IMG/VR virus record: IMGVR_UViG_3300029135_000007
Location: 1-57,937 of that record
DNA: 57,937 nucleotides
From: a virus
Direction: 5' to 3' (one strand)
A program made the translations under genes and the position numbers. Each line of letters starts with the position of its first letter. Position 1 is the stretch's first letter. Positions 16,183 to 57,937 of the stretch are shown here, one piece after another. The notes beneath the pieces were generated by a model. That model searched no databases and was not told where the DNA came from. It saw only the letters and a list, made by a program, of their open reading frames with translations.

Positions 16183-16236
16183 ATAGACAGTAAACAAACT
16201 TATTTACACCACCACCAAAACAGGAGGACAAAAACC

Positions 16237-18902: not shown

Positions 18903-18941
18903 CTAGATGCTGCTACCCTTTTCAGACTAGATGCTGCTACC
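18903..18941 (+). repeat. 15-bp direct repeat ctagatgctgctacc x2, separated by 9 nt
   Basis: Read directly at 18903-18917 and 18927-18941. Confidence 0.9.
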
Positions 18942-19275: not shown

Positions 19276-19424
19276 AGATTGGATGTTTTTGCAATGTAAC
19301 ACCACTTTGCGCTGATAGTCGCAGCCGTTTTGTCTCATGCGCTTCGCTTTCGTCTCAATCTGCCCTGTGACTAGACGAATCTTTCTCAAATCCAGACCTT
19401 GCCGTTTTCCCCTGATAAATAACA

Positions 19425-19485
19425 AGAGAAAAAAGCACGGAATAGTCGCAGAGGGTAGTTTTACTACCTGACACCATTCCATGCT
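19425..19485 (-). terminator. rho-independent terminator for gene 19523..19825
   Basis: Outer stem agcacggaat/attccatgct (one G-T pair), inner hairpin ggtagt-ttt-actacc, T-run on the minus strand. Confidence 0.55.
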
Positions 19486-19522
19486 TTCTGATACAGTAGT
19501 TTTGTAGTCGTACGAGCTAAGA

Positions 19523-21942: not shown

Positions 21943-22607
21943 CGCAGAAAGTCTCCCTCGTCAGGCAATTCAGCCATTGTCTGCTGATAGCCACCGTTCC
22001 AGTCCTTCACGTTACGCATCCAGTTCCGTGCAGCAGCTTTCCAGTCTTTCATAGGCGACTTGCCGACTTTCCAGCCATTCGCCGTGAAATGGTCAACGAA
22101 CCGTTCTGCTTCTGATTCTATGTAACCCTTTTCCGCAAAGTATTCTTTGGCTTGCTCGATAGTTGGTGACTTGAAGCGTTTGACTGCGTTGGTATTTTTC
22201 TTTTCACATTTTTCTTTTTTATCAGATTCAGATACAGAATCAGATACAGATAAGGCATCGTTTGCATCCATTTGCATATTTTGCATACCAGTGTATGCGT
22301 TTGCATCATTTGTATGCGTTTGTATGCACTTGCATTTTTCATCGTTCCAACGCTTATTTGCACTCCGTCTGTTTTTCTCAATTCGCTCCTGTCTTTTCTG
22401 TGCATTCATATCATCGAACGCCTTAACAACCTTCCAGAGCATCCGCATAGCACGGTCGTTGTCGTATGCTGGCTCAAGTCCAGTCTCAACATACTGTGCA
22501 TAGTTGCGGACGAATGCTCCAAATTCCTCGTCTGTCAGCTCGTCCATTGCATGGACGTGCTCCAACAGGAGAATCATTGATGTTCTCGGCTTGTGTTCCT
22601 GCTCCAT
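21939..22607 (-). CDS. replication organizer / helicase-loader-like protein (DnaD-type, tentative)
   Basis: Translationally coupled upstream of the dnaB-like gene. Two-domain protein joined by a low-complexity linker that is encoded by DNA repeats. Start taken at MEQEHK (ATG 22607). Confidence 0.5.
   Translation of the reverse strand: MEQEHKPRTSMILLLEHVHAMDELTDEEFGAFVRNYAQYVETGLEPAYDNDRAMRMLWKVVKAFDDMNAQKRQERIEKNRRSANKRWNDEKCKCIQTHTNDANAYTGMQNMQMDANDALSVSDSVSESDKKEKCEKKNTNAVKRFKSPTIEQAKEYFAEKGYIESEAERFVDHFTANGWKVGKSPMKDWKAAARNWMRNVKDWNGGYQQTMAELPDEGDFLR
22222..22335. repeat. short direct repeats inside the organizer gene (TCAGAT(ACAGA) x3; TTGCAT x5; GTATGC x3): candidate lytic origin
   Basis: tcagattcagatacagaatcagatacaga and tttgcatccatttgcatattttgcataccagtgtatgcgtttgcatcatttgtatgcgtttgtatgcacttgcat, read directly. 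Confidence 0.5.
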
Positions 22608-22609
22608 AT

Positions 22610-22840
22610 TCAATCCTCTTTGTAGCGTTTGTTCCATGCTTCGATAAGGTCTTTTTTAACCTTTTCTTTATCAGCTTCGGAGCAATCAGAGCTGTATAGC
22701 TTGCTTTCCATGAATACCCGGCACTTACATCCATTTTTGCCGTTTCCTCTTGTTATAAGCATCCAGCTTGTCAAATAGTCGCCTGCTTCTGCAATGGCAA
22801 CTTTCCCGCCGCAGAACGGGCATCTTTTGAGTTCTGTCAT
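22610..22840 (-). CDS. lar: Lar-family restriction alleviation protein (zinc ribbon)
   Basis: LKRCPFCGG near the N-terminus and ...LIEAWNKR near the C-terminus, the Lar-family signature. Confidence 0.6.
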   Translation of the reverse strand: MTELKRCPFCGGKVAIAEAGDYLTSWMLITRGNGKNGCKCRVFMESKLYSSDCSEADKEKVKKDLIEAWNKRYKED

Positions 22841-24551: not shown

Positions 24552-24926
24552 TCAAACCTCCTTTGGCGGTTCAGGAAGATACGCCCAATGAGTTACATCT
24601 CCAAATACAATGTACTCGTCGTGCTCTTGCCATAGTCCGTCATAAGATAAAAATGCAATTTCAATGCCGAACTTTTCTCTTTTTACGAGAACTTCTTTGT
24701 CTTTTTCGGGTAAAACTTTTTTGGCATCAAACCATATATTGGCGGGCTCAGATTTTTCCAATACGTTGGCTAAATCTAAAAACACATCTCCAATGCTACT
24801 TCTGATTTGTCCTTGTATGTATACGATTAAGTTTTTGCTATCCAAAAACGGCTTCGCTTCATTCTTTTTGTCAACGCCAACAGTTTTCCACGCCGCAATG
24901 ATTGGGTCAACATCAACCAGTTTCAC
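24552..24926 (-). CDS. DUF551-like protein
   Basis: C-terminal ...FGDVTHWAYLPEPPKEV motif. Confidence 0.5.
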   Translation of the reverse strand: MKLVDVDPIIAAWKTVGVDKKNEAKPFLDSKNLIVYIQGQIRSSIGDVFLDLANVLEKSEPANIWFDAKKVLPEKDKEVLVKREKFGIEIAFLSYDGLWQEHDEYIVFGDVTHWAYLPEPPKEV

Positions 24927-36343: not shown

Positions 36344-36673
36344 ATGGCAAACTTGTACGAAAATATTGAAAAACTCTGCAAGCAGCGTGGAGTAAACGTG
36401 ACCACTATGTGCAAGGAATCGGGCGCAAGTCGTGGGTCTTTGACCGATTTGAAGAACGGAAGAAAGCAAACATTGAAATATGAAACGCTTGATAAGATAG
36501 CTTCTTATTTTGAAACAAGCGTGGATGCTTTGGTTTCTGGCGAGCAAAAAGAAAACCCGCCCCAGCAGCCGCAAAGTGAAGTCGATGCAGCAGTGGAGCG
36601 GATTAGAAAAAAGCTTGAATCTATGCCGACAGCGCAGCGTGAAGCGCTGATGAACCTGATCGAGAAGATGTGA
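36344..36673 (+). CDS. XRE-family HTH repressor (CI-like)
   Basis: ...NIEKLCKQRGVNVTTMCKESGASRGSLTDLKNGRKQ... is a canonical XRE HTH. Confidence 0.75.
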   Translation: MANLYENIEKLCKQRGVNVTTMCKESGASRGSLTDLKNGRKQTLKYETLDKIASYFETSVDALVSGEQKENPPQQPQSEVDAAVERIRKKLESMPTAQREALMNLIEKM

Positions 36674-37630: not shown

Positions 37631-38224
37631 ATGGATGAATATTTGGTAAGAACGGCCAAAACATTAGAGATGGCACGGATGCGTTCCGGCTTAAGCCAAC
37701 AGAAATTAGCAGCACGAATGGGCGTGAATCGTGGCACGATTGCCAACTGGGAGCAAGGTCTGGCAGCCATTTCCCTGCCAATGGCTATGCGCTGGTTCAC
37801 CTGTTGCGGCGTATCGGCGGCTCGATACATGGACGCTTGCATTTATCCTGGATTGCTGGAGCATCTGGAAGACGACCTTCCTGGTCTGGAGAAGCGGCAG
37901 ATTCTCATAGATGCTATGATGGAATGTTCTTCCTATGAGATAGATGCCTTGTTGTATATCCGGTACGGAGATCACGGCTCAGACCATATGGGTGTGCTGA
38001 CGGAGGTTCTGGCAAACCTCCACACACCATTGAAGGACAGGGTCTCTGTTTGCCGGATGGTATCGGGCAATTACGAGATAGCGCAAGCTACCGGAACAGA
38101 CCCAGACCCGAATGGAACCGCCCCGAAGATGGAAATACTCTATCAGGCGCAAGATGCCGGGACGGAAGCCGCTATGAAGTCCAACGATTCTTATACCGTG
38201 AATCCGAATAATATAAGCGGCTGA
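37631..38224 (+). CDS. XRE-family HTH regulator with C-terminal extension
   Basis: Start taken at MDEYLVRTAK; ...MARMRSGLSQQKLAARMGVNRGTIANWEQG... Confidence 0.65.
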   Translation: MDEYLVRTAKTLEMARMRSGLSQQKLAARMGVNRGTIANWEQGLAAISLPMAMRWFTCCGVSAARYMDACIYPGLLEHLEDDLPGLEKRQILIDAMMECSSYEIDALLYIRYGDHGSDHMGVLTEVLANLHTPLKDRVSVCRMVSGNYEIAQATGTDPDPNGTAPKMEILYQAQDAGTEAAMKSNDSYTVNPNNISG

Positions 38225-38295
38225 TTGTCGAATTATCGCAGTTTTTGAAGAACATTTTGTCCACTTTTTGTACACCTATCGGGCGAATTCGCCTT

Positions 38296-38410
38296 GTCAT
38301 TCCGTCCCCCATAGGCTATGAATCGACAACATTTGCGCGGAATAAATAACGTAGTAGCGATAATATATAGCTTGCATTTAATCGGCTCGTCAATCCGTCC
38401 CCCATAACAC
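38296..38410 (-). repeat. two inverted iteron cores GTCCCCCAT (38304-38312, 38397-38405) with the flanking repeat cactttttgtacac (38262, 38431)
   Basis: Read directly; these are reverse complements of the ATGGGGGAC iteron core. Confidence 0.75.
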
Positions 38411-38500
38411 CGGCTCAAAAGTTTTTCATACACTTTTTGTACACGTTAGATAAGACTAATCATTGCCGGAAAGACTTTATTCAGCAAATGGAAGGTTGAG

Positions 38501-38509
38501 TTATCCACA
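38501..38509 (+). promoter_or_regulatory. DnaA box, perfect consensus TTATCCACA
   Basis: gagttatccacaagc, read directly; followed by a roughly 90-bp AT-rich stretch (38520-38612). Confidence 0.7.
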
Positions 38510-38614
38510 AGCTGGAATGGGAAAATAAAGAAATTGTTGAAAATTATCGTCATCGCCTATTTAACGATGATATTTAACCTCTTGTTTATTTCTTGTTTAA
38601 TATATAATATGTAG

Positions 38615-38725
38615 ATGGGGGACGAAATGACAAAGCATGGGGGACGTTTTGACAAGTCACGGGGGACGTTTTGACGACCCTATGGGGGACAAAAAGACAA
38701 ACCATGGGGGACGGAGTGTATTGAC
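38615..38725 (+). repeat. five direct 22-bp iterons (A(T/C)GGGGGAC-N13), plasmid-type oriV
   Basis: Starts at 38615, 38637, 38659, 38682 and 38704 (spacing 22, 22, 23, 22), directly upstream of the rep promoter. Confidence 0.9.
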
Positions 38726-38749
38726 TTGTCCCCCGGTCTGTGCTATACT
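38721..38749 (+). promoter_or_regulatory. rep promoter TTGACT-17-TATACT with an inverted iteron core in the spacer
   Basis: ttgact tgtcccccggtctgtgc tatact; GTCCCCC at 38728-38734 suggests Rep autoregulation. Confidence 0.6.
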
Positions 38750-38778
38750 GTTTTTGGGCTGATAAAGGAGGCGAACAG

Positions 38779-39858
38779 ATGCCTAAAATATCCGACAACA
38801 ACCTTGTTGAAAAAAGCAAATCCCTTGTGTGGGCAAAGTTTAGGGACTACACGGCAGGTGAGCTTCGATTGCTAGAGGTTTACTTGTCAAGAATAAATCC
38901 GAGAGACCCAAACAGCAGCCGCGTGGAGTTCTCGCTGGCAGAGTACAGAGACCTTCTGGGTTTAAAAAGCCTTGATGCACGAAGGATTGAGCCGCAGATC
39001 AAGCACTTTCTGGGCAATACGGTGTCGATTCCCATTGACAAAGAGAAGGGGACGTTTGAGAGCTTTGTCCTTTTCACAAGGGCAAAACTGGACTATGCGC
39101 CAGAAACAAGGTCTTATGTTGTGGCAATCACTTGCAACCCTGACCTTCGTCCCATCTTTTTTGATATTGCCGAAAGCGGGTACGTTCGGTATCGTCTACG
39201 TTACACATCACGAATGAAGTCTCAGTACAGCATTCTGCTTTATTCGATTCTTCGGGACTGGATGAACATGGACAACAAGCCGCATGAAATCAGTCTGAAA
39301 AAACTGAGAGAACAGCTCGGTGCGATGGAAGCGAGCTACGATGTTTACAAGAACCTTCGCAAACGAGTGCTTGACGTTGCAGTAGATGAAATCAATGCTG
39401 TGTCTGACATTGTGGTGACCTATGAACCGGTTCTTGTGGCACGAAAGGCTGTGGCAGTCAAGTTTAAGCCAAAAATTAAAGCGTCTGAGACGTTGATTGA
39501 AGCTCAGTCAAGCGAAGTATCAACCGAACCTCAAAAAAACGCCAGAAAGCCCCGCAGAAGCGGATACGAGGATTTTGACTGGTCTGTATGTGACGAGCTG
39601 GAAAAGCAAGACTGCATTGACGTGGCAAAAGTGGTTGAGAAGTGGATGAAGAAAGAGCATCCAGAAATCAAGTTGCCAAGACGCAGAGAAGCGGTTTACG
39701 ATACGGTAAAGGCAGCATATAAGGACATCTTATCTTTGGACAGGTCTCCGTTTCCCGACAGACCTGTTGGCTATCTGATTAGAAGCGTGGACAAAGCGGG
39801 TATCGTAGACAAGTATATGCCAGCGTTTTATTCCATTGAAGCGCTTAACAGCAAATAA
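38779..39858 (+). CDS. plasmid replication initiator (Rep_3 / RepB-like, iteron-binding)
   Basis: Start at ATG 38779 after RBS aaaggagg. ...LVWAKFRDYTAGELRLLEVYLSRIN...RYTSRMKSQYSILLYSILRDW... is typical of winged-helix Rep_3 initiators; iterons lie immediately upstream. Confidence 0.75.
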   Translation: MPKISDNNLVEKSKSLVWAKFRDYTAGELRLLEVYLSRINPRDPNSSRVEFSLAEYRDLLGLKSLDARRIEPQIKHFLGNTVSIPIDKEKGTFESFVLFTRAKLDYAPETRSYVVAITCNPDLRPIFFDIAESGYVRYRLRYTSRMKSQYSILLYSILRDWMNMDNKPHEISLKKLREQLGAMEASYDVYKNLRKRVLDVAVDEINAVSDIVVTYEPVLVARKAVAVKFKPKIKASETLIEAQSSEVSTEPQKNARKPRRSGYEDFDWSVCDELEKQDCIDVAKVVEKWMKKEHPEIKLPRRREAVYDTVKAAYKDILSLDRSPFPDRPVGYLIRSVDKAGIVDKYMPAFYSIEALNSK

Positions 39859-39873
39859 AGAAAGAGTGATAAA

Positions 39874-40644
39874 ATGGCAAAAATCATAGCTGTCGCCAAC
39901 CAGAAAGGCGGCACAGGAAAGACTACCACAAGCACCTGTCTAGCAGGTGCGTTGCAGTTGCTTGGCAAGAAGGTGTTGCTGGTGGACTGCGATGCCCAGT
40001 GCAACGCAACGGACACCTACGGCGCACAGACAGAGGATGTGTGTACCCTGTTCGATGTAATGACCCGGCAAGGAACAGTGGAAGAAGGAATCCAGCACTG
40101 CGAAGCCGGTGACATTCTGCCGTCAGACAACGCATTGAAGGACATTGACGAGCAGCTTGTCCGGGACATGGGCAAGAACTTCCGGCTGCGAGAAGCCCTT
40201 GAAAGCGTGTCTGGGCAGTATGATTACATTGTGTTGGACACTCCCCCGCAGCTTGGTCTTGCGCTTGTGAATGCGCTGATCGCCGCTAACAGCATCATCG
40301 TGCCCATTACAGCAGACCGATATGCGCTTGCCGGATTGAGCCAGCTTTCGCAGACCATTGGTGACGTTCGCAGATACTTCAATCCGACTTTGAAGATTGA
40401 AGGTCTGCTTCTAAACCAGTACAAGAGCCGTGAGAACCTGTCCAAAGAGGTCGTAGAGCAGCTTCCTGTGATTGCAGAAAGTATGGGAACAAGGCTGTTG
40501 GACGTGAAGATTAGACCATCTATGGGCGTTCGTAAGGCGCAGGCAGAGCGGCACAGCCTGTTTAGTGGTGACACGGCAAAGAGTACAAGCGCAGAGGACT
40601 TCAAGGCGTTGGCGAAGATGATTGTAGAGGGGAAAGAAAAATGA
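39874..40644 (+). CDS. parA: ParA/Soj-family partition ATPase
   Basis: Deviant Walker A in MAKIIAVANQKGGTGKTTT...; ...VLLVDCDAQ...; 15 nt downstream of rep. Confidence 0.9.
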   Translation: MAKIIAVANQKGGTGKTTTSTCLAGALQLLGKKVLLVDCDAQCNATDTYGAQTEDVCTLFDVMTRQGTVEEGIQHCEAGDILPSDNALKDIDEQLVRDMGKNFRLREALESVSGQYDYIVLDTPPQLGLALVNALIAANSIIVPITADRYALAGLSQLSQTIGDVRRYFNPTLKIEGLLLNQYKSRENLSKEVVEQLPVIAESMGTRLLDVKIRPSMGVRKAQAERHSLFSGDTAKSTSAEDFKALAKMIVEGKEK

Positions 40645-41036
40645 GCGATTTGTACCCACATCTTTTGAATGCAACTTGTTCTGATGACACGGAGCAAGTC
40701 TACATTATCAATTTTGGTTTTTCATTTAATGACCTTTCCGATAAAGAGAAAGAAATGGCGTTTCATTCTCAGTGGTATCTAGCTGAAAAATATTGCAAAA
40801 AGTGGCAGAAAGAACTTGCAAATAATCAATGGGCGAAATCAGAAGATGAAATGCCAGATGAACTAAACCCATACGTTATCGGGTTTAGCAAAGACGAATA
40901 CGATGTAGAAATTGTAGGCTATGAAAAAGATTTTAAGGAATGGCGGGACAAAAGCGGAAAACCGCATAATATAACTCACTGGATGCCATTGCCGACCGTT
41001 CCTGATCTTGATGAAGATTGGGAGGAAGATGAATGA
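40641..41036 (+). CDS. DUF551-like protein
   Basis: C-terminal ...KPHNITHWMPLPTVPD motif. Confidence 0.55.
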   Translation: MSDLYPHLLNATCSDDTEQVYIINFGFSFNDLSDKEKEMAFHSQWYLAEKYCKKWQKELANNQWAKSEDEMPDELNPYVIGFSKDEYDVEIVGYEKDFKEWRDKSGKPHNITHWMPLPTVPDLDEDWEEDE

Positions 41037-41605
41037 AATCAACCAGCAAAAAACCCACAGGCTTGCTTGGCGGATTTGATTTCCAGCCTATTTTTTCGGA
41101 ACAGAAATTAAGCCGAAGTGAGCCAAAGGAAGAAGAAGTAAGCCAAGCAAAGCCGAATAATGCCGAACAAGCACTAATTAAGCCTAGTGATGCCATAGAC
41201 AGCCATGCGCAGCCAAGTGAAGCGGAATTAAGCAGTATTAAGCCGAAGCAAGCCAAAGACAGCGAAAGACAGCCAAATGATGCCGTATTAGGCGAAGGTA
41301 AGCCAAAGAAGCTGAAACAGGCAAAAGAAGTGCAACGCTTGATTGAACAGGGCAATGTTCCCGGCGCACTGGCTGAAGCTGGCTTGACAAAGAAAAAAAT
41401 CCCGATGCCAGAATCGCATCAGGGCGTTGCAAGTGGTGACGGCAAGCGTTCTAAGCGCATTACCATCCTTATGAGCGAGGAAGAACGCAAGTACATCAAC
41501 CGTGAAGCCAGACGGCACGGAATGACGATAGGGCAGTATGTGTACGCTCTGGCAGTTGCGGCGGCAGAAGGAAAGATTGAACTGGAAGATTTCTTGGAGG
41601 ATTGA
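41033..41605 (+). CDS. RHH DNA-binding protein with repetitive disordered N-terminus (candidate centromere-binding ParG/ParB analogue)
   Basis: C-terminus ...KRITILMSEEERKYINREARRHGMTIGQYVYALAV fits a ribbon-helix-helix; the N-terminus has seven decapeptide repeats; located in the parA operon. Confidence 0.5.
   Translation: MKSTSKKPTGLLGGFDFQPIFSEQKLSRSEPKEEEVSQAKPNNAEQALIKPSDAIDSHAQPSEAELSSIKPKQAKDSERQPNDAVLGEGKPKKLKQAKEVQRLIEQGNVPGALAEAGLTKKKIPMPESHQGVASGDGKRSKRITILMSEEERKYINREARRHGMTIGQYVYALAVAAAEGKIELEDFLED
41120..41329 (+). repeat. seven tandem 30-bp coding repeats ((K/Q/E)P-x-x-A-x-x-x-x-x decapeptides)
   Basis: Units start at 41120, 41150, 41180, 41210, 41240, 41270 and 41300 (gagcca/aagccg/aagcct/cagcca...). 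This produces an AGCC motif about every 10 nt. Confidence 0.8.
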
Positions 41606-43687: not shown

Positions 43688-44326
43688 TCACTTGTCAGCA
43701 ATGCAATTCCAGTAGAGATATGCCTTGCCGTCCACAGCGTCCGTGTCATCAAGGAACGCCTTTGCCATGTCAGCGTAGAAGCCCGGAGTATCAACAGACT
43801 GGCGCTTTGCGACTTGACAATAATCCGAGTACATCATGTTCATGACTGCCCAGAAATCATTCGGGTCACAAGTGATATTCCGCTGTTTCGCAACGTCCTG
43901 TGTCTGTTCCAGCGTCCAGTGACAGCCCTTCGTACCGTCAGCGTTCACCATGCTGTCGCACCATTCCTCTGCTTCATCGTGGGTGAGGTGCTGGCGTGGC
44001 ATCTTGATAGAGCGGCTGTCTGCGCCGCCACGTTCGTACTGTCCAGACCGTTTGTCCCAGTCTCCGTTCTGCGAGAAGCCAATCTGCGGCATCTTGCGCC
44101 CATACTCTACGTCAGGGTAGCGGGGGATGGGGTAGGGGTCAATGTAGCGGTTCTCCTCCTGCGGATAATAGGGATAGCGGTCGTTGCCATCTTCCAGCTT
44201 GCGCAGACGGCGTTCCAGCTCACGTTCCCTGCGGTCACGCTCTTCCTCAAGGCGGTCACGTTCCGGCTCACGGTCTTTTTCGTGGTCGCGGAGCATCATC
44301 ATGCGGCGAAAATTAGTCTTGCCCAT
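43688..44326 (-). CDS. hypothetical protein, Arg/Glu-rich N-terminus (cassette gene 5)
   Basis: Track ORF, 212 aa. Confidence 0.5.
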   Translation of the reverse strand: MGKTNFRRMMMLRDHEKDREPERDRLEEERDRRERELERRLRKLEDGNDRYPYYPQEENRYIDPYPIPRYPDVEYGRKMPQIGFSQNGDWDKRSGQYERGGADSRSIKMPRQHLTHDEAEEWCDSMVNADGTKGCHWTLEQTQDVAKQRNITCDPNDFWAVMNMMYSDYCQVAKRQSVDTPGFYADMAKAFLDDTDAVDGKAYLYWNCIADK

Positions 44327-44339
44327 AATCTATACCTCC

Positions 44340-44711
44340 TCAAGAAATGGACGCAGGCGCGCCAGCGTGTGAGCGGCAGAAGCAGCCAAGATACTTGAAC
44401 GTGCCGGTGCCGGTTGCAGACGTTGCCACACGGGTAGCGTAGCGAGTGCGAGTGTGGATGCTCTCAGCGGTTGCCTGAGCGCAGTTGCAGTCGGTCAGAG
44501 GGTATGCGGTCGTGCCTGCGCCTATGGTAATGACCACAGGTGCGTTGATGGTAGTCGTGTCCGGCAAGCTCTGAGCAACGACAATGCAATATTTTTCGCC
44601 TGCTGCGTAAGACCCGGCAGGGATGTTGATGGTCAGAGTATCGTCGGCAAACGTGACTGCCTGACTGATGACCAAGTGCGGGCAGAGTTTGCAACTTGTT
44701 TTGCAAGCCAT
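44340..44711 (-). CDS. hypothetical Cys-rich protein (cassette gene 4)
   Basis: 123 aa; CKTSCKLCP, TDCNC and GCFC clusters. Confidence 0.5.
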   Translation of the reverse strand: MACKTSCKLCPHLVISQAVTFADDTLTINIPAGSYAAGEKYCIVVAQSLPDTTTINAPVVITIGAGTTAYPLTDCNCAQATAESIHTRTRYATRVATSATGTGTFKYLGCFCRSHAGAPASIS

Positions 44712-44796
44712 AGTATTTTCCTCCTAAAAAATCAGGGGCAGAGGTGTCTTGCCCCTGCCCCGATGGTTCACCCGGTGTTATCGGGGAGTGTGTAGG

Positions 44797-45669
44797 TTAG
44801 CAGCAGCCGCAGCAGTTCACGCCCACGTTGGGGTTTGCCACCTGATAAGCGGGAATCGGACGAGGATTGACCCGGTTCAGGATGGTATCGGTCTGCTGGG
44901 ACATCACAGTGGTCAGAAGCGCATTCTGACGATCCTGAGAAGCGGCGAACTTCAGGCTCTGGTTCTCAGCGGTCAGAGTGGCAATCTTATCCTGCGTGAA
45001 GTAGTCCATCATGCTGCGGAAATTGGCGTTGCAGTTGTCCACGATGGCGCGGGCGTTGTCTGCAATAGCCTGACGTGTAGCGCAGTCCTGCTGTGCAATG
45101 GTGTACTTCAGGTCGCCGATGAGCTGCTTGTTCTCGCAGCAGCAAGATGCAAGCTGCGTGGAAAGTGCGGTCTGACCCGCCTGCCGTGCGTTGCCCTCCT
45201 GCATGATGGCGAGGCTGATGGCGTTGTCGCCGTTGGACACGCTGCGTTCCAGACCGTTCACGAGCTGTGCGTTCTGGTAGCCGAGCTGACAGATGGCGCT
45301 ATTCACGCCCGCAAAGCCGTTTGCGATGTTGGCGTTCACGCCGTTCATCTGCACCAGCTGGTCATAGCCCAGAGAGCAGATGCCGCTTTGGATGCCAGCC
45401 AGAGAACGGGAAGTGTCCTGCTGGTAGAAGCCCTCCGACAGCGCCGCGCGAGTATCTGCGCCGCCCTGACCGGTTGCGCCAGTACCAACCAGATAGGGGA
45501 TGTAGCTGTTCATGCCGTTGTCACCACCGTTCCGACCGTAGCCGCCGTTGCCCCAGCCGAAGATGATGGCGAGGATGATAACCGCCCACAGACCTTCGTT
45601 GCCGAAAAATCCGCCGTTGTTATTGCCGCCGTCCTGCCCAGCCAGATAACCAGTTGCAAAATCGTCCAT
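44797..45669 (-). CDS. hypothetical membrane-anchored Gly/Asn/Gln-rich protein ending in CCGCC (cassette gene 3)
   Basis: 290 aa; TM helix LWAVIILAIIFGW; internal CCC; C-terminal ...NVGVNCCGCC. Confidence 0.55.
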   Translation of the reverse strand: MDDFATGYLAGQDGGNNNGGFFGNEGLWAVIILAIIFGWGNGGYGRNGGDNGMNSYIPYLVGTGATGQGGADTRAALSEGFYQQDTSRSLAGIQSGICSLGYDQLVQMNGVNANIANGFAGVNSAICQLGYQNAQLVNGLERSVSNGDNAISLAIMQEGNARQAGQTALSTQLASCCCENKQLIGDLKYTIAQQDCATRQAIADNARAIVDNCNANFRSMMDYFTQDKIATLTAENQSLKFAASQDRQNALLTTVMSQQTDTILNRVNPRPIPAYQVANPNVGVNCCGCC

Positions 45670-45791
45670 AACAAAACTCCTTTCAGTTTTGCGTTATGCC
45701 ATCCCACCGCCGTGTGCGGTGGGCGAAGCCAAATAAAAGCGGTTTTTATCAAGTCCGCAAAACTGAGAAGCGTTTCGCTTAGAGGGATGCG

Positions 45792-46043
45792 TTATCGGGG
45801 CAGCGTCAGGTTCAGGACGCTTGCCAGCTGGTTCAGGTCAATACCCCGCTCTTTTGCGAGGTTCTGTGCCATCGTCCTGAGCTGCGTTTCGTTCTTACCC
45901 TGAATCAGGTTCAAGCCCTGCATGATAGGCGCGTTCTGTCCGCTCAACTGCTGGATAAGCCCCATCGGGTTCTGCCCGGCACGAGCCAGATTTGCAAGCT
46001 GCATGATGGGGCTGTGCGTAATCACATCAAACGGAGAGGACAT
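45792..46043 (-). CDS. hypothetical protein (cassette gene 2)
   Basis: Track ORF, 83 aa. Confidence 0.45.
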   Translation of the reverse strand: MSSPFDVITHSPIMQLANLARAGQNPMGLIQQLSGQNAPIMQGLNLIQGKNETQLRTMAQNLAKERGIDLNQLASVLNLTLPR

Positions 46044-46045
46044 TG

Positions 46046-46564
46046 TTATTCTCCTTTCTTTGCTGTGGCAGCGGGCTTAGAAAAGCTCTTCTGCCACTTT
46101 TCCAGTTCATCCAGCCTGTGGACGAGGGCATCGTACTGCTCAATAGGCACATACTGCTGTGTCGGTGCAGCGGTCTGCTGTGCCTGTTGTACCTGCATCT
46201 GCCGCCACGCTTCCGGGCTGTAAAACTCCTGTACATAGGATTCGCAGGTGTCCGGGTTCAGTCGCTTGCAGTAGATCACGCCGCTCCGCAAGTCTGGACA
46301 GTAGGTCGGTCTGCCATACAGGTCAGACGGTATCGCCAAAAATTCCTCCCTGCTGGAAACAGGTCTGCCCAGTAACCAACCGCCGTCCTGTACCGACTGC
46401 TGAACAGGCTGTTGCCCATTCATCGGCTGCGGACGCTGCGGTTGTGCCTGTTGCATCTGCGTGTTGGGCAGGGGAGTGGCAAGCCCTACCGTACCCATGC
46501 CGCCGTAAGGGTTGACAGGCTGCTGTGGAACATAGGGCGCTCCGGGTGTTGGATAATAGCTCAT
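46046..46564 (-). CDS. hypothetical protein with Pro/Gln-rich N-terminus (cassette gene 1)
   Basis: Start taken at MSYYPTPGAPYVPQQPV (RBS aaggaggg). Confidence 0.5.
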   Translation of the reverse strand: MSYYPTPGAPYVPQQPVNPYGGMGTVGLATPLPNTQMQQAQPQRPQPMNGQQPVQQSVQDGGWLLGRPVSSREEFLAIPSDLYGRPTYCPDLRSGVIYCKRLNPDTCESYVQEFYSPEAWRQMQVQQAQQTAAPTQQYVPIEQYDALVHRLDELEKWQKSFSKPAATAKKGE

Positions 46565-46778
46565 AATACATCCCTCCTTGTGCATCCAGTGTACCGCTTT
46601 AAGCCGCCGTAAGAGACAACGAACGCACAACGAAGGACAAATATAAACTGATACAACTGCTACAAAATAGACAAAAAAATAAGGCAAAGTCTAGCAACTG
46701 TGCCTGTATCACTTGTGGCAGTTTTGTGGTATAATCAGTACAACAAAACCAAGAACATAGTTTTAGGAGGAAACGACT

Positions 46779-47273
46779 ATGGACGCAAAAACCATCCAGA
46801 ATCTGGGTAAGCTGTACCGCTTGCTTGATGAGGCCTGCTCCAACCGCGTGAATCAGGCAGACCTTGACAACGCTACGAGGTTTCCCGTGCGTGGCGTGAT
46901 GATGAAAATTACGCTGGCACATAAGCTCCACAAGATGACCCCGGAGCTTGACAACGCCTGCGCTTACGTCCTGAAGGATGTAGACCTTGAGGACGTGGAT
47001 AACAGCTTTGCGCTCAAAGCATTGCCGTTGCAGCAGCAGGGTATATTCCAAATCGGATATATGTCACCCGATTATAAGACACTCGGCGTGTCTGCCGTAA
47101 AAATCAAAGCCGCTCGGGAAAACGCCGGGCTGACCATTCGTGCGCTGTCGGAGAAGACCGGGTTGTCTACCGCGACCATCCAACACGCAGAAGCCAGAAA
47201 ACCTATCCGGATGACCACGCTCAAGAAAATTGCTGTGGCCTGCAACGTATCAGTAGAAGAGTTGCAAGGGTAA
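46779..47273 (+). CDS. HTH (XRE-type, C-terminal) regulator, divergent from the Cys-rich cassette
   Basis: C-terminus ...IKAARENAGLTIRALSEKTGLSTATIQHAEARK...; RBS taggagga; a TGgTATAAT promoter upstream. Confidence 0.6.
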   Translation: MDAKTIQNLGKLYRLLDEACSNRVNQADLDNATRFPVRGVMMKITLAHKLHKMTPELDNACAYVLKDVDLEDVDNSFALKALPLQQQGIFQIGYMSPDYKTLGVSAVKIKAARENAGLTIRALSEKTGLSTATIQHAEARKPIRMTTLKKIAVACNVSVEELQG

Positions 47274-47399
47274 AAGAAAAGCGCCCACACGGAAAAATCC
47301 GCATGAGCGCTTAACTGTTAAGGGCCTCACATTGGAAGCAAAAATAAAATATCACGTTTTGACTTGCAAGACAAGAGTTTCGACAGAACTAGTGAGAAT

Positions 47400-47630
47400 A
47401 AAACAAAATCCACCAGCCTAAAAGCTGATGGATTATAAGTGAGCGAGTAATCGCCCTGCCACCGAAGCAGCAAAATTGCGTCTCCCGCATGGTACGCACT
47501 GCAAGTAGGCGGGCGGGAGACTGGTCGGCGCCTATCTAGCAACCGCTTTTTTCATTCCCAGATAAAGCACTGGGCTAGCTGGCAAATATCCACCCTAATG
47601 CGCTTCTTCGAGAGGCCGGGTGGATTTGTT
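47400..47630 (-). ncRNA. candidate structured non-coding RNA, about 230 nt, with its own promoter and terminator
   Basis: Extended -10 TGgTATAAT (minus strand, 47637-47646); stems atccaccc/gggtggat and gtctcccgc/gcgggagac; a C(UUCG)G hairpin; terminator atccatcagc-ttttag-gctggtggat followed by TTTTGTTTT. No plausible ORF. Confidence 0.4.
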
Positions 47631-47655
47631 GAGATAATTATACCACAATTCGTGC

Positions 47656-47693
47656 AAAAAGAAAAGCGGCAAGCTCTGGAATAGCCTGCCGCT
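47656..47693 (-). terminator. rho-independent terminator after the sigma-r4-like gene
   Basis: agcggcaggc...gcttgccgct stem followed by TTTTCTTTTT on the minus strand. Confidence 0.6.
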
Positions 47694-47760
47694 TTGTTGC
47701 GTTTGTAGAATCAGCCTTAAACATGCGTCCTACATACACTCAGCCCGTAAAAATATTATA

Positions 47761-47928
47761 TCACACATCCAGCATTTTTTCAATGCTTTTCAGCCGGTAG
47801 CCTACCGCCGTCCGGCTGTAATGTGTCTGTGCTGCAATCTCCGGCAGCGGGAGCCGCTCAACGTACCGCAGTAAGGCTATCTTACGGTCTACCCTCCCAA
47901 GCGGTGCGCTTTTGATCGCGGCGGTCAT
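47761..47928 (-). CDS. sigma-70 region-4-like HTH protein (late regulator candidate)
   Basis: ...RKIALLRYVERLPLPEIAAQTHYSRTAVGYRLKSIEKML is a region-4 type HTH; the start is uncertain (track ORF extends to 48045). Confidence 0.45.
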   Translation of the reverse strand: MTAAIKSAPLGRVDRKIALLRYVERLPLPEIAAQTHYSRTAVGYRLKSIEKMLDV

Positions 47929-48194
47929 CTGCTGTCGGTCAAGTCCTTGCAGCGCAGGGGGCAGCACTACACGAGCCGCCGCCACAGGCAGCACCGAGCC
48001 AGAAGGGCTGCGGCAGCTGTCCGGCGTTGCGCACCATAGTGCCAAGCACGGCGAAACGGTGACAAAACGTCACCATTTTGTTGACGTTACCAAAATCGCA
48101 ATGAGTTCGACTTTTAACAGCTAAAAAGTTGAACTCATTTGCTAAAATGGCCGTTTTGGGCCACTTTTGGGAATATGTAGTGCTGCTCATAGTC

Positions 48195-48536
48195 TTACTC
48201 CTTACTCAGTGCCGCCTTCATGCGGTCAAAGAAAAACTGGATCACCCGCCCGATGGTCTCATCAGTGATGGCCCAGCTGATGAGCCTGCCGTATTTGCTG
48301 GCGCTCAGAGCGGCCCGGAGCATCTTGACGACCCACGCCTTGCGCTCTGCGCCCCGCTTTGTACCCTGTATCTCGTGCTCGGCCCGCTCGATGAGGTCAA
48401 GCACCAGAGGCTTCACGGCGGCACCATAGCCCAGCCGGATGCAGCCGAGGGCGTAGAAAATAAAGCCCCCCAGCATCAGCACAGCCGCCACCGGGGCGGG
48501 GATAAGGTCAAAAAGCTTAGTTGCCAGTGCTTCCAT
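48195..48536 (-). CDS. holin (LL-H-like)
   Basis: N-terminal TM (IPAPVAAVLMLGGFIFYAL), then a charged helical tail; immediately downstream of the endolysin and TM-protein genes. Confidence 0.55.
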   Translation of the reverse strand: MEALATKLFDLIPAPVAAVLMLGGFIFYALGCIRLGYGAAVKPLVLDLIERAEHEIQGTKRGAERKAWVVKMLRAALSASKYGRLISWAITDETIGRVIQFFFDRMKAALSKE

Positions 48537-48909
48537 GATTGGTCACTCCTTTTAACAGATAGTTGTCGATGTCGGCGCGGCTCTTCTGCATCCCCTCGCG
48601 ATTGTTGCCGGACAGCTGCGCGTCCAGCAGATTGCGCACCCCGTCGAGGGTCAGACGGCTCACCTCGTCGATTTCGTCAAAGCGGCGCTGGTCACGGGCG
48701 AGGGCCTGAGTGTGCTGAAGCTGGCCCTGCTCTAAGGTGCCGATGCGCTTGTCCATCTCATCCAGCCGCTTGTTCTGCACGTTGTCCGGCTCCTGCGCCT
48801 TTTTGATGTACTTGTGGATGATTTCCAGCACCTTGTCGATGGTGATGGCTGCAGCGCACAGGCTGCCCAGGATGCCCAGTACCCACAGCAAAGCTTCTTT
48901 TTCGGTCAT
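48517..48909 (-). CDS. membrane-anchored coiled-coil lysis-cassette protein
   Basis: TM helix LLWVLGILGSLCAAAI plus a coiled coil; lies between the endolysin and holin genes. Confidence 0.45.
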   Translation of the reverse strand: MTEKEALLWVLGILGSLCAAAITIDKVLEIIHKYIKKAQEPDNVQNKRLDEMDKRIGTLEQGQLQHTQALARDQRRFDEIDEVSRLTLDGVRNLLDAQLSGNNREGMQKSRADIDNYLLKGVTNHGSTGN

Positions 48910-49718
48910 TTGCCCTCCCGAAGACGGGTCAAGCCCTTCTTGCGGATGATTTTTGGGTAGTTGCGCTCGGTGACGTTGAGGTCCACGTTGCCCGTGATGC
49001 CCGGCACAGCGCCCTTGCTGGTGTGCTGGTGGGCGTTGTAGTTAAACGTCACGTTGGGCGTTTTGCCGGTGTAGTCGGCAAGCCACACGTCATAGGGCTG
49101 CAAAGCTGCGCCGCCCACATAGAGATGCGCATTTGCAAAGCTGGTGTAGGTGTACAGCTGGGCATAAAAGCCCATCTGCTCTACCTCATGCAGAGCGTAG
49201 GCGGTCAGGTCAGTCAGGCTCTGCTTGTCCAGATTGCCCAGCCGGTTGTCCTCCACGTCCACCGCCACCGGCAGGGTCAGCTCCTTGCCCCGCAGCGCCT
49301 GCCGCAGCAGGGCAAGCTCTGCATCAGCCATCGCCTCGCTGGTAGCGTAGGTGTAGTAGTAGACGCCCACGTCCAGCCCGGCGGCCCGGGCGTTGCGGTA
49401 GTTGGTCTCAAAGGTGGGGTCGATATAAAGGCCGTCTGCCCGCTTGGAGAGCTTGCGGTTGGTGCTCACGGTCTTGAGCATTGCCCCCTTGTAGCCCGCC
49501 GCTTTGACCTTTCGCCAGCCGTCGAGGGTAATTTTGCCCTGATACCGGCTCACGTCGATGTACCGGTAGGGCGGGTCGCCCTCCCAGCCGGTGACAGCCT
49601 CTGCCCCGGTGGGTTCGGGAGGCTCCGGTGCGGGCTTTGCCTCTTCGGCATCCTGCTTGTCCCCCGGACCAAAGATGGCCCGCACAAGCTTTTCCAGCAG
49701 CTCCAGCAGTTTATCCAT
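48906..49718 (-). CDS. endolysin, GH25 muramidase type
   Basis: Start taken at MDKLLELL (RBS gggggagg); ...YIDVSRYQGKI...GAMLKTV...DVGVYYYTYA...VAVDVEDN... are GH25 motifs. Confidence 0.8.
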   Translation of the reverse strand: MDKLLELLEKLVRAIFGPGDKQDAEEAKPAPEPPEPTGAEAVTGWEGDPPYRYIDVSRYQGKITLDGWRKVKAAGYKGAMLKTVSTNRKLSKRADGLYIDPTFETNYRNARAAGLDVGVYYYTYATSEAMADAELALLRQALRGKELTLPVAVDVEDNRLGNLDKQSLTDLTAYALHEVEQMGFYAQLYTYTSFANAHLYVGGAALQPYDVWLADYTGKTPNVTFNYNAHQHTSKGAVPGITGNVDLNVTERNYPKIIRKKGLTRLREGK

Positions 49719-49881
49719 TGTAGTAGTCCTCCCCCGTGATCTCCTTGTACTGTTCAGGGGTGATCTCCCCCTCGGCCACCCTCTTGGCCAGCTCCCGCTT
49801 GACCCCGGGGCGGCGGCTTGCGGGCATCTCTGCCCAGGTCTTGGTACCGGCAATCAATCTGTTTGCCCAGATTTTGTCCAT
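49711..49881 (-). CDS. XkdX-like small protein
   Basis: MDKIWANRLIAGTKTW...GEITPEQYKEITGEDY; RBS aaggagga. Confidence 0.55.
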   Translation of the reverse strand: MDKIWANRLIAGTKTWAEMPASRRPGVKRELAKRVAEGEITPEQYKEITGEDYYNG

Positions 49882-49894
49882 TTTGATGTCCTCC

Positions 49895-50257
49895 TTACTT
49901 GTTGACGGCGGTATCCAGCTCGCACAGTGAGTCCTCAATAGCCGCCAGTCTCTCATCAGCGGCCATATCCTGCTCGCAGAGGGCGTCTTCCATCTCCGCA
50001 GCGGTCTTCGCCGCCTGTTCTGCCAAAGGGCCGGTCTTGTCGGTCATCCGGTAGTGGCGGTCGATCTCGTACCAGTCATAGCAGCGGCCCTCCGCGTCCT
50101 CCGCGCTGCGCAGCTTGCAGACGACGCGGAAGCTGTCGGTGATGGTCTGGTCGGGATACTCCCGCTCGATCTGGTGATACCCGGTCAGATCAGTGTGGTG
50201 GTCGCCCTTGGTCTTGAGGACTTCGATGCGGCCCTTTGTGCCAAATACGTATTCCAT
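49895..50257 (-). CDS. hypothetical protein downstream of the tail fibre gene
   Basis: Track ORF, 120 aa; RBS aaggagga. Confidence 0.5.
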   Translation of the reverse strand: MEYVFGTKGRIEVLKTKGDHHTDLTGYHQIEREYPDQTITDSFRVVCKLRSAEDAEGRCYDWYEIDRHYRMTDKTGPLAEQAAKTAAEMEDALCEQDMAADERLAAIEDSLCELDTAVNK

Positions 50258-50305
50258 GCGGTCTCCTCCTTATAAAGTTCAGCGCCTTACGGCGCGGTTA
50301 TCTGC

Positions 50306-50321
50306 GGGGGCTGCGGCCCCC
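50306..50321 (-). other. GC hairpin (6-bp stem, 4-nt loop) abutting the tail-fibre stop codon
   Basis: Coding strand reads TGA-GGGGGC-CGCA-GCCCCC; a second hairpin gcgcc-ttac-ggcgc at 50282-50295; no T-run follows. Confidence 0.7.
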
Positions 50322-52256
50322 TCAGACTCCCCCGTTGGGGAGTTCCTGGAGGCGGCAGCCGATGCTCCCGCCATAGACCGACGCGCTGTTGCAGCTGACG
50401 TAGAACAAACCATAGTTGAAGCTGCGGCTATAGTAACCACCGACGTAGAGGCACGGGTACGACGAGCCGAAGTACCAGTGATCGCACGAGTACGTTGCGT
50501 CACTACCGGACGCGGATGTGGGGATAAACACCGGGAAGTCGCCGTTTGCCTTGACCCTGAATGCGGACGGCCAGCCATCGGACGGAACGCCGACCGCCGT
50601 GCCATTGCTGCTGTCGCTGAAGTTTGCGGGGTTCAGGATGATGTTGAGGCCATTGCTGTTGTAGTAGCAGCCATCGCACCAGTCATAACAATTATCCCAC
50701 AATCCCTCGATGTTGCGGTACTGCGTGCCGCAGCCGTAAGTGGTGCGGCGGCTTTGGGTCGTGCCGGTGTGGTAGGGCATCGAGTCGGTATACCCCATCG
50801 ACTGCGCGGAGCGGTTGTCTCCGCAGCCGTACCCGATGGCGTTCTGACTGTTCCAGTCGCAAAATTCGACGATATAGAGCAGCCAGATGGTAAACCGCAT
50901 CGCAAAATCGCTCTGCCAGATGGTCGAGCCAAGATTGTGGATGCCGGAGCGGGCCGAAGAGCGGGTCATGTTCGCCCTGGGGCTGCCGGTGCCGCTCTTA
51001 TAGGTGTCGTTGCAGTGGTATCTGCCGATGTACACCACGTCCCGCTCACCGTGACCGTCGCCTCTGTCCATGTGGGCAGGGCTGACGCTGTAACCCTCTA
51101 CCGCGCGTTCGGCAATTTGGATAGTCATGCCAGCGCCATTTTGCTCCAGTTTATACCAGAATTTGGGGATAGCCACCATCGTGCCGCCGGTGCGTTCACT
51201 TTTTACCATGCCAGCCCAAGGCTGCAAGTTATCGAAAGGACTGCCATAGCTGCTTGCACCCGCGACGTATGGCACAGGGTCGGTAAATTCTTCTGCCTCG
51301 TCGGTGCGGCTCCACTTGGTGGTGCTGGTGCCGTCCCAGCTTGCGCCGTAGATGTGGATATAGGAAAGCTTAAGGGGGTAGTCCCTATACTCGCTCACCT
51401 TCACTCTGCGCTCGGTGGTCTCGTCGCCCAGCGTGGCCGTCACGGTCCATGTACCAGCGATGGGCAGATAGAGCTTGATGCTGCCGCTCTCCGGCACCGT
51501 GCCGGAGACGGTCTTGTCCCCGCACTGGGCGGTGACGGTGCTGCCCGCCTTGATCGTCACGGTCAGGGTGTAGTAGGTCAGAGTCAGGGTCTTGGTGCGG
51601 CAGTATTCCGCCTGCACCGTCTCCGTGGCCACGCCGGTGCCGAGCGTGGCGGTGACGGTCCACTCTCCGTCGTGGGGCAGGGCCGCAGAAAAGCTGCCGT
51701 CCGCAGCCACGCCGCTCACGTCTTTCTCGCCGTCCGAGAGGACGATGGAGCTGCCCGCCTCGGTCTGCACCACCACCCGGGGCAGCACGATGCCGCCTAC
51801 AGCCGCAGCGTCTGCCGCCGCGCCGGAGATGGTGAGGGTCTTGTCGGTCTCGATTTTGATAGCGTTGATGCGGTCACCCACGGCCTTGGCGTCTGCGGGC
51901 GCGCCGGAGATGGTGAGGGTGGGGTCGGTGCTCACTACAGCAGCCGCCTTGTCGGCGCTTTTTTTCGCTTCTTCTGCGGATGAGGCCGCAGCGTCTCTGC
52001 TTGCGGTTGCAGAGTTTGCGGCTAACTCAGCAGCGTCTTTTGCGGTTGACGCAACGGTTGCGGCGGCCTCCGCCTTTTCCTTTGCAATGTCAGCCCCTGC
52101 AACATCACTCAAAGTGTTGAGGGTGTCGGCGTTCATTGGAGTACCCTCGACAACAGGTTCATCATTACGAATCAAAGTGATGATTTCTGATGTGCCATCA
52201 GATTTCATCATAGTCCAACGCCCGGGATATTTTGCTTTTCGGTCAACAAAATGCAT
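50322..52256 (-). CDS. tail fibre / receptor-binding protein with C-type-lectin (FGE-sulfatase-like) C-terminal domain
   Basis: Start MHFVDRKAKYPGRW (RBS ggaggtg), a conserved fibre N-terminus ...EPVVEGTPMNADTLN...; repeats ...TISGA(P/A)ADA(K/A)AVG...; C-terminus ...WDNCYDWCDGCYYN...YVGGYYSRSFNYGLFYVSCNSASVYGGSIGCRL. Confidence 0.7.
   Translation of the reverse strand: MHFVDRKAKYPGRWTMMKSDGTSEIITLIRNDEPVVEGTPMNADTLNTLSDVAGADIAKEKAEAAATVASTAKDAAELAANSATASRDAAASSAEEAKKSADKAAAVVSTDPTLTISGAPADAKAVGDRINAIKIETDKTLTISGAAADAAAVGGIVLPRVVVQTEAGSSIVLSDGEKDVSGVAADGSFSAALPHDGEWTVTATLGTGVATETVQAEYCRTKTLTLTYYTLTVTIKAGSTVTAQCGDKTVSGTVPESGSIKLYLPIAGTWTVTATLGDETTERRVKVSEYRDYPLKLSYIHIYGASWDGTSTTKWSRTDEAEEFTDPVPYVAGASSYGSPFDNLQPWAGMVKSERTGGTMVAIPKFWYKLEQNGAGMTIQIAERAVEGYSVSPAHMDRGDGHGERDVVYIGRYHCNDTYKSGTGSPRANMTRSSARSGIHNLGSTIWQSDFAMRFTIWLLYIVEFCDWNSQNAIGYGCGDNRSAQSMGYTDSMPYHTGTTQSRRTTYGCGTQYRNIEGLWDNCYDWCDGCYYNSNGLNIILNPANFSDSSNGTAVGVPSDGWPSAFRVKANGDFPVFIPTSASGSDATYSCDHWYFGSSYPCLYVGGYYSRSFNYGLFYVSCNSASVYGGSIGCRLQELPNGGV
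50325..50441 (-). other. DGR variable-region-like segment (last 38 codons of the fibre gene)
   Basis: GGYYSRSFNYGLFYVSCNSASVYGGSIGCRLQELPNGGV; 21 of the 29 codons after GG end in C (TAC AGC CGC AGC TTC AAC ... GTC AGC TGC AAC AGC ...). Confidence 0.4.
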
Positions 52257-57838: not shown

Positions 57839-57937
57839 CTGCCAAGACCACGCACGGCGACAGAGACGGCTTCAAAGCCAAGAACTGCAAGGCCAGCAAC
57901 GGGATGCCCGCTAATAGTCAAACCGATTCCGATAAGC
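57839..57937. repeat. terminal overlap, copy 2 (identical to 1-99)
   Basis: Read directly. Confidence 0.97.

Follow-up and report, generated by a model that had tools for sequence, protein, structure and literature searches.

The DNA analysed here, referred to as the window (57,937 nucleotides, IMG/VR record IMGVR_UViG_3300029135_000007), is the complete circular genome of a human-gut tailed phage with a unique length of 57,838 bp, and carries in its 38.2-41.6 kb region a plasmid-type maintenance module composed of an iteron origin, a Rep_3 initiator (Rep), a ParA ATPase and a ribbon-helix-helix (RHH) protein. It very probably represents a temperate siphovirus-type phage of a gut Firmicute, the prophage of which is most likely kept as a low-copy plasmid and not integrated. 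An earlier note, made from the sequence alone, had proposed a phage-plasmid, and the present analysis supports that proposal by a complete set of phage genes, a plasmid replicon with partition genes, and the absence of integrase domains. The activities assigned to the individual parts are read from sequence features, domain membership, population structure and co-variation, and are worded as predictions throughout.

A complete phage genome with a maintenance operon at its switch

The two ends of the window carry an exact 99-bp repeat (1-99 = 57839-57937), and an open reading frame (ORF) of 1299 residues, resembling a tape-measure gene, runs across the junction. Together, the terminal overlap and the junction-spanning ORF imply that the window closes as a circle. 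Genes were called with a codon-usage model, and all of them were scanned against Pfam as concatenated chunks, with PHROGs used in addition. The Pfam matches include packaging, head and tail genes (large terminase, SPP1-type portal, E-type major capsid protein, and tail proteins), a GH25 lysin, two Bro-N/ANT antirepressors and several helix-turn-helix (HTH) regulators, as well as a DnaB-like helicase, SSB, ERF, a PAPS reductase, and a C5 methylase. The full morphogenesis and lysis modules named in the earlier note are thereby accounted for, as are its two antirepressors and its CI/Cro-like switch, the latter in the form of HTH genes of repressor type. The same note had stated that neither a tyrosine nor a large serine integrase is encoded, and in agreement with this, no PF00589 or PF07508 domain was detected in the called genes or in alternative ORFs of at least 230 residues.

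The maintenance operon is situated beside the switch, at the place where the integrase is found in Clostridium phage Maintenon. A repressor-type HTH gene (HTH_26/RstR-like; 36344-36673, plus strand; matched in Pfam and by NCBIfam RstR at 4e-7) is located at the strand switch, on the same strand as the maintenance operon, and the cumulative GC skew has its minimum at ~36 kb. An HTH_3 regulator of 197 residues, counted from an internal ATG (37631-38224, plus strand), lies directly upstream of the origin and is kept in all relatives.

Gut plasmids and megaplasmids can carry prophages, and the element might be a plasmid that picked up a (possibly defective) prophage, and not a phage that behaves as a plasmid. 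The best PLSDB matches of the portal indeed belong to prophages that reside on plasmids of between 285 kb and 1.1 Mb, and one Rep relative of 44% identity is located on a 358-kb contig. We nevertheless regard this explanation as very improbable, because beyond the maintenance module of ~4 kb the circle holds phage-type genes only, the morphogenesis and lysis genes are all intact ORFs, its size matches a single phage genome and stays constant over hundreds of assemblies, and the relatives have entries in IMG/VR and among faecal 'Bacteriophage sp.' records. Gene scans of the circle returned no conjugation, mobilisation, or other plasmid backbone genes.

Replication origin and initiator

The origin precedes rep and shows the order DnaA box, AT-rich stretch, iterons, promoter operator, and rep. 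All of its elements had been listed in the earlier note, and each could be located again. The DnaA box TTATCCACA (38501-38509, plus strand) is the sole perfect box in the window, and relatives keep it in place as either TTATCCACA or TTTTCCACA (TTWTCCACA). The AT-rich stretch, earlier put at roughly 90 bp, spans 105 bp (38510-38614), has an A+T content of 73% compared with 51% for the window, and includes an imperfect inverted repeat of 28 nt; this stretch presumably serves as the DNA-unwinding element. Five direct 22-bp iterons (ATGGGGGACGnnnTGACAAnn; 38615-38725, plus strand) follow, and repeat analysis places their starts at 38615, 38637, 38659, 38682, and 38704, i.e., at a spacing of 22-23 bp. 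The iteron core GGGGGACRNWNWGAC has six matches where 0.2 are expected, a number reached in none of 100 shuffles, and every match falls within 38296-38698.

The inverted cores previously seen at 38304 and 38397 belong to two inverted copies of the cognate, A-type iteron (38291-38312 and 38384-38406, both on the minus strand), which are 85-91% complementary to the direct copies. The third inverted core, GTCCCCC (38728-38734), occupies the 17-nt spacer of the rep promoter TTGACT-17-TATACT (38721-38749, plus strand), which has TTGACT at 38721, TATACT at 38744, and a TG extension. This core forms a palindrome with iteron 5. Such a palindromic arrangement is the usual form of a Rep autorepression operator, and the palindrome is presumed to have this function here.

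The initiator gene (38779-39858, plus strand) encodes a RepE-like protein of 359 residues. Its assignment as Rep_3-like, first made by eye, is borne out by profile searches in which both winged-helix domains score above the Pfam gathering thresholds: Rep3_N (WH1) at 4.8e-23 (82.5 bits, cut-off 22.4) and Rep3_C (WH2) at 8.7e-13 (48.8 bits, cut-off 21.1). The closest structure in the PDB is that of F-plasmid RepE (E = 5e-9). Relatives of Rep were found by tblastn in 1916 PLSDB plasmids, and the matches listed are all annotated as replication initiators. The best PLSDB match is a 6.9-kb plasmid of Mediterraneibacter gnavus, at 36% identity; at the DNA level, a PLSDB search with the window gave no match. 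Rep relatives occur in 7 of 50,697 phage records, two of which are unannotated faecal fragments of the same lineage, and relatives of 40-46% identity are present on contigs of ~3.5 kb, the size of small cryptic plasmids.

Iteron types co-vary with the Rep allele

One phage backbone carries Rep alleles of 50-97% identity. A different allele comes with different direct repeats upstream of rep, placed in the same register, with the DnaA box and the AT-rich stretch staying put. The type A iteron is ATGGGGGACGTTTTGACAAG, and the type B iteron is CGTGTACAAAAAGTGGAG. The origin region is included in 234 loci, of which 157 are of type A, 63 of type B, and 14 of other types (C, D, E). These rarer types, at least three in number, occupy the same register and backbone (relatives L125/L138, L155/L177/L196/L199/L205-L207, and L239/L271), giving at least five Rep-iteron specificities in a single backbone. 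The number of iterons also varies, and L026 has seven direct copies instead of five. We consider the co-variation between iterons and Rep allele to be the strongest in-silico evidence for a working origin, and it is the pattern to be expected of an initiator and its binding sites that diversify into incompatibility groups.

In addition to its cognate sites, the window contains two inverted iterons of type B, i.e., with the specificity of a different Rep allele, one at 38258-38276 (GTGTACAAAAAGTGGA on the minus strand) and the other at 38428-38446 (minus strand, 15/16 match). Together with the inverted A-type sites these form a B-A-(93 bp)-A-B arrangement upstream of the DnaA box, which is present in all A-type and B-type elements examined, the comparison having been made at the same positions in L001-L014, L097-L100, and ~220 IMG/VR loci. 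In A-type elements, the column entropy is 0.17 for the A sites and 0.19 for the B sites, compared with 0.59 for the columns between them; in B-type elements, the values are 0.12 for the B sites, 0.25 for the A sites, and 0.77 for the rest. The low entropy at the foreign sites indicates that the foreign iterons are not decaying. One idea is that they serve in cross-handcuffing, or in titration of a rival's initiator.

Partition genes and the array inside the RHH gene

As described in the earlier note, a Walker-type ParA gene starts 15 nt downstream of rep, at 39874, and an RHH protein is encoded in the same operon. ParA (39874-40644, plus strand) is small, 256 residues, and matches AAA_31 at 9e-54 over residues 2-175. 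It has a deviant Walker A motif, KGGTGKT, at residues 11-17, no N-terminal HTH, and is closest to Soj/ParA structures in the PDB (1e-41 to 1e-32). The RHH protein (41033-41605, plus strand), a candidate centromere-binding protein, is assigned from a borderline, NikA-like Pfam match (5.6e-6), an AlphaFold 2 model, and the ranking of Foldseek matches. In the model, residues 1-90 are disordered, and the C-terminal part forms a strand-helix-helix unit with a pLDDT of 85-93 over residues 141-180. Foldseek places RHH proteins almost exclusively at the top of its ranking (Arc, CopG, antitoxins of the RHH class, NikA, and ParG; target TM-scores 0.45-0.9); a sequence search of the PDB with the protein returned nothing at E-values up to 10. 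The family is narrow, with 23 representatives in 1.84 billion clustered proteins, and its members consist of a conserved N-terminal peptide, MKxTSKKxSGLLGGFDFQ, a variable middle, and a conserved C-terminus, KRITILMSEEERKYINREARRHGMTIGQYVYALAVAAA.

A variable DUF551 ORF of 131 residues (40641-41036, plus strand), missing from the gene list of the earlier note, lies within the operon, flanked by parA and the RHH gene, and the stop and start codons of adjacent genes overlap there. DUF551 ORFs recur, both elsewhere in the window (24552-24926) and in L097 and L384, and in the operons of relatives they are located either upstream of parA, following rep, or downstream of it, ahead of the RHH gene. 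These shifting positions suggest that the rep-parA-RHH operon tolerates insertion of small genes.

The RHH gene contains twenty consecutive phased 10-bp units with the consensus AAGCCAAAGT (41110-41309). The period-10 information of this array is 1.00 bit per position, compared with a genome mean of 0.134 (sd 0.054) and a value of 0.36 for the next best segment, and no other phased array is present in the window. All relatives keep the array, and its length differs only by 30 or 60 nt, both divisible by 3 as well as by 10. When 56 distinct arrays are compared, how variable a base is depends on its place within the unit (positions 1, 3, and 7 score 0.12-0.14, and position 6 scores 0.59) and not on codon position (0.27, 0.23, and 0.35); the C-terminal part of the gene has a normal coding pattern (0.15, 0.15, and 0.60). 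Judged from these sequences, the array is constrained at the DNA level.

Two divergent homologues carry arrays of their own in the same part, the 5' half, of the RHH gene. In L380 (2507-2626), which has the same backbone and also encodes Rep_3 and ParA, there are twelve 10-bp units, AGTCAGnGGA, and in L378 (126-287) about eighteen 9-bp units, AGAWTGMRC. The β-strand of the RHH domain reads TRMAIAM and SRVSVPM in the two divergent homologues as compared with KRITILM, and across the three lineages the sequence and period of the array differ in step with this strand. The constraint at the DNA level and the co-variation with the β-strand make the 20 × 10-bp array a candidate for the centromere on which the RHH protein acts, or at the least for its operator.

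The array and the foreign iterons can be brought together in a joint reading that we offer tentatively, considering it somewhat improbable as a whole. On this view, the coding sequence of the RHH protein would double as the centromere, the 10-bp units dictating the peptide sequence of the protein's disordered linker, and the foreign iterons would be held under purifying selection as a competition device that titrates or handcuffs the initiator of a rival relative, such that incompatibility would act as superinfection exclusion or competition.

Candidate lytic replication genes and the serine recombinase

The earlier note had listed a separate phage-style replication set headed by an organizer, and had concluded from it that two replication modes exist. 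The set is largely real: the DnaB-like helicase (20719-21942, minus strand; Pfam), SSB, ERF, and a Holliday-junction resolvase, the last identified via PHROGs, are found in an early leftward operon. The organizer did not stand, the gene upstream of the helicase (21939-22637, minus strand) encoding a protein assigned by Pfam to DUF6291. This protein was rejected as a replisome organizer, as its PHROG matches are without known function and it is unlike the 'replication initiation protein' of Maintenon. The existence of two modes of replication, plasmid and lytic, is therefore no more than plausible. The DUF6291 gene contains direct repeats at 22223-22335 (ATGCAAA-type units with a period of ~10, plus 19-nt and 6-nt repeats). 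Phage origins can lie inside initiator genes, as for lambda O and SPP1 G38P, and by analogy the 20719-22637 segment with its internal repeats is a candidate for a second, lytic replication module or origin.

The small serine recombinase reported at 12059-12616 is confirmed (minus strand, 185 residues; PF00239, 2.6e-41, residues 3-135). It is of the resolvase/invertase type, without a large C-terminal recombinase domain, and is the only recombinase in the window; its best PHROG match is a DNA invertase (1.5e-61). A relative is encoded in 137 IMG/VR loci, and in the 80 of these that were kept the protein is 95-100% conserved, which suits a core role such as multimer resolution. We regard it as a candidate multimer-resolution enzyme and not as an integrase. 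A 40-nt inverted repeat, 83% complementary (12937-12976 and 16154-16193), flanks a 3.2-kb segment beside the recombinase gene. An invertible segment between these repeats was considered and rejected: the arms are outward-facing strong promoters (TTGACA-17-TACAAT), and the inner genes have the opposite orientation in none of 80 relatives. Few places in the genome are as AT-rich as these arms, and the region upstream of the recombinase gene is a zone of variable cargo.

These genes bear on a further explanation, according to which the Rep_3/iteron unit is an early theta origin for lytic growth, the phage being virulent, pseudolysogenic, or integrating in an unrecognised manner, e.g., by means of the small serine recombinase, and ParA and the RHH protein having some other role. 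Iteron-binding initiators do occur in phages (lambda O and lactococcal phages), lambdoid phages also diversify their initiator and origin specificities, and the PHROGs family 'replication initiation protein' matches Rep at 3e-32. Likewise, the catalytic domain of the serine recombinase matches integrase-class PHROG and NCBIfam models. Against this, the module is on the repressor strand beside the switch, at the place of the Maintenon integrase, and rep is co-transcribed with a ParA ATPase, for which we know of no role in lytic growth. Moreover, the relatives of Rep are almost exclusively plasmid proteins, and a separate DnaB/SSB/ERF set is already present in the early lytic operon. With respect to integration in particular, the recombinase lacks the large domain, has a DNA invertase as its best PHROG match, and the element is not found in any contig longer than 200 kb (see below). 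On balance, we find a purely lytic or integrating role for the module unlikely, and retain the plasmid prophage as the preferred interpretation.

Population structure and the weighing of a plasmid prophage

The lineage is abundant. Clusters of Rep at 90% identity contain 1,488 and 1,381 member sequences, a relative is encoded in 282 IMG/VR loci, and hundreds of further metagenome contigs carry the module. Near-complete contigs are 50-62 kb long, and Rep can be found at any position along them, as expected from random breakage of a circle. In contig-length histograms for three module proteins, the 50-200 kb class comprises 8, 30, and 24 blocks, and no contig above 200 kb carries the element. 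Scans of 185,579 species genomes with the Rep protein and with a Rep alignment gave no close relative, such that no host can be assigned; the sole match is a Rep of 35% identity, encoded on a 22-kb contig of a Faecalibacterium metagenome-assembled genome (MAG). Copies sourced from NCBI were considered as possible isolates and rejected, these being metagenome assemblies.

The style of the assembly, which is that of a metagenome, and the terminal overlap of k-mer length could also point to a chimera of a phage and a plasmid. This explanation is effectively refuted by the gene order around the module, which is the same in hundreds of independent assemblies (ENA, JGI, Logan, and NCBI).

A number of observations weigh against maintenance as a plasmid. 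At the origin, a single perfect DnaA box is not significant alone, as ~0.4 are expected by chance in the window, and the weight of this element therefore rests on its position and conservation. Iteron-type initiators can, as noted, serve lytic phage replication. In the partition module, the Pfam score of the RHH protein is 26.9 bits at a cut-off of 27, i.e., 0.1 bit short, and none of its Foldseek E-values is significant, the domain being very small. A repeat array upstream of parA, the usual place of a type Ib centromere, was not found, the rep-parA gap being 15 nt, and parA and the RHH gene are not adjacent, a variable gene lying between them. No isolate genome was found to carry the element, and a packaged genome of the headful type would give circular or permuted contigs as well, which means that circularity alone is no proof.

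A final point of this kind concerns IMG/VR contigs longer than one unit, with lengths of 63, 68.5, 77, 84.5, 90, 100.6, 110, and 115 kb. The 115-kb contig 3300045988_050806 (L257, L274, L092, and L108) carries two same-strand copies of a ParA 21-mer at a distance of 59,910 bp, which identifies it as a head-to-tail concatemer of two non-identical units. The 21-mer was found once each in the 100.6- and 110-kb contigs (among 80 of 83 matches listed), and the 110- and 115-kb contigs each contain just one copy of strain-specific 24-mers. Apart from the 115-kb contig, the over-unit contigs might in principle hold host DNA, and this is the main risk to the plasmid interpretation.

Proposed mechanism

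Based on the behaviour of the protein families involved, Rep monomers would bind the five direct iterons (38615-38725) and, together with host DnaA at the 38501 box, melt the 105-bp AT-rich stretch to initiate theta replication. Rep bound to the palindrome of iteron 5 and the inverted core would repress rep, and the inverted iterons 230-320 bp upstream would probably provide copy control by looping or handcuffing. The RHH protein is predicted to coat a repeat array, for which the 20 × 10-bp array in its own gene is the best candidate, and its N-terminal peptide would stimulate the small Walker ParA, by which plasmid copies would be moved apart on the nucleoid. Dimers may be resolved by the 185-residue serine recombinase. 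Once the prophage is induced, lytic replication and packaging would involve the DnaB-like helicase, SSB, and ERF encoded by the phage itself.

Comparison with known systems

The overall design is similar to that of P1 (RepA, with iterons at oriR), a temperate tailed phage that exists as a low-copy plasmid, the corresponding state being deduced from sequence in our case. Going by the predicted functions of its parts, the window shares with P1 a winged-helix initiator of the iteron-binding kind, DnaA boxes, additional iterons for the control of copy number, a Walker-type ParA for partition, a site-specific recombinase able to resolve dimers, and a separate function for lytic replication. The two phage backbones have no detectable sequence relation. 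P1 ParA is of type Ia, with an N-terminal HTH, an HTH-type ParB, and parS downstream, whereas the window encodes a small ParA with an RHH partner and a candidate intragenic centromere. The recombinase is of the tyrosine type in P1 (Cre-lox) and of the serine type in the window, the host of which is taken to be a gut Firmicute.

With the Rep_3 replicons of plasmids (F RepE/ori2, pSC101 RepA, pPS10, and R6K pi), the window shares the WH1 and WH2 domains, RepE being the best PDB match, as well as the order of DnaA box, AT-rich stretch, direct iterons, and an inverted-repeat operator in the rep promoter. Unlike these replicons, Rep of the window has a C-terminal extension of 120 residues without a known domain, inverted iterons of foreign specificity are kept upstream of the DnaA box, and the replicon is part of a phage genome.

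The partition genes resemble those of type Ib systems (TP228 ParF-ParG-parH, pCXC100 ParA-ParB, and pSM19035 delta-omega) in the small Walker ParA lacking an HTH, and in a partner whose N-terminus is flexible and whose RHH domain is C-terminal, its gene being downstream of parA. The module fits the description of this type (PMC3074162, PMC5016525) except for the centromere. Type Ib centromeres are uninterrupted short direct repeats; that of pCXC100, for example, has nine repeats of 9 nt (PMC3074162), whereas parH is built of tetramer boxes (PMC3130281) and pSK41 parC of 10-bp repeats (PMC5016525). The window, in contrast, has no array upstream of parA, its only array being inside the RHH gene, and also differs from type Ib systems in the variable gene between parA and the RHH gene and in an operon shared by the par genes with rep.

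Judged by the portal (32% identity), the closest cultured phage is Clostridium phage Maintenon of [Clostridium] innocuum, which has a similar size, 57 kb, and likewise encodes a DnaB-like helicase, PAPS reductase, SSB, and an antirepressor. Unlike the window, Maintenon has a tyrosine integrase beside its repressor and is without the Rep_3, ParA, and RHH module. In a survey of gut phages, 399 viral operational taxonomic units (vOTUs; 6.2%) clustered with known phage-plasmids, mostly from Firmicutes and Actinobacteria (bioRxiv 10.1101/2025.02.07.636470), and the window belongs to the same class of element and the same habitat. At the DNA level, no relation was found to the reference phage-plasmids named in that study or to PLSDB plasmids, and the best protein-level matches to plasmids are 36% for Rep and 27% for the portal.

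Phage-plasmids are well known, but this widespread gut lineage has not been described before, and literature searches returned no published account of it. What could turn out to be new are the intragenic array and the foreign iterons. As a mode of persistence for temperate phages, phage-plasmids are recognised but under-counted, and lifestyle predictors label phages that lack an integrase as virulent. The lineage is very common in human gut metagenomes and has no cultured or annotated representative. Its 38.2-41.6 kb region is a candidate backbone for stable low-copy vectors in genetically intractable gut Firmicutes, and the presence of at least five Rep-iteron specificities in one backbone provides a natural series in which to follow the evolution of initiator specificity and incompatibility. 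The intragenic array and the foreign iterons furthermore yield testable hypotheses on partition and on competition between related replicons.

Other features of the genome

In some relatives, an ORF of 398 residues beside the tail-fibre gene (L383, 18646-19842; L391, 10826-12022) has a faint reverse-transcriptase match, possibly part of a diversity-generating retroelement; no reverse-transcriptase domain was detected in the window. A region of ~1.7 kb (17800-19500) has poor coding potential and no Pfam match, and contains small tandem or direct repeats at 18351, 18482/18855, 18587, 18900/18924, 19148, and 19209-19278. The sole Rfam match in the window is a tRNA-Ile with the anticodon TAT (9652-9728, minus strand), located between the portal and terminase genes. 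At 44000-52000, the G+C content is 57-63% as compared with ~47% elsewhere. This segment spans a cluster of DUF7841 genes, the lysis genes, and a tail-fibre-like gene of 666 residues, and its raised G+C content suggests a different evolutionary origin or mosaic exchange.

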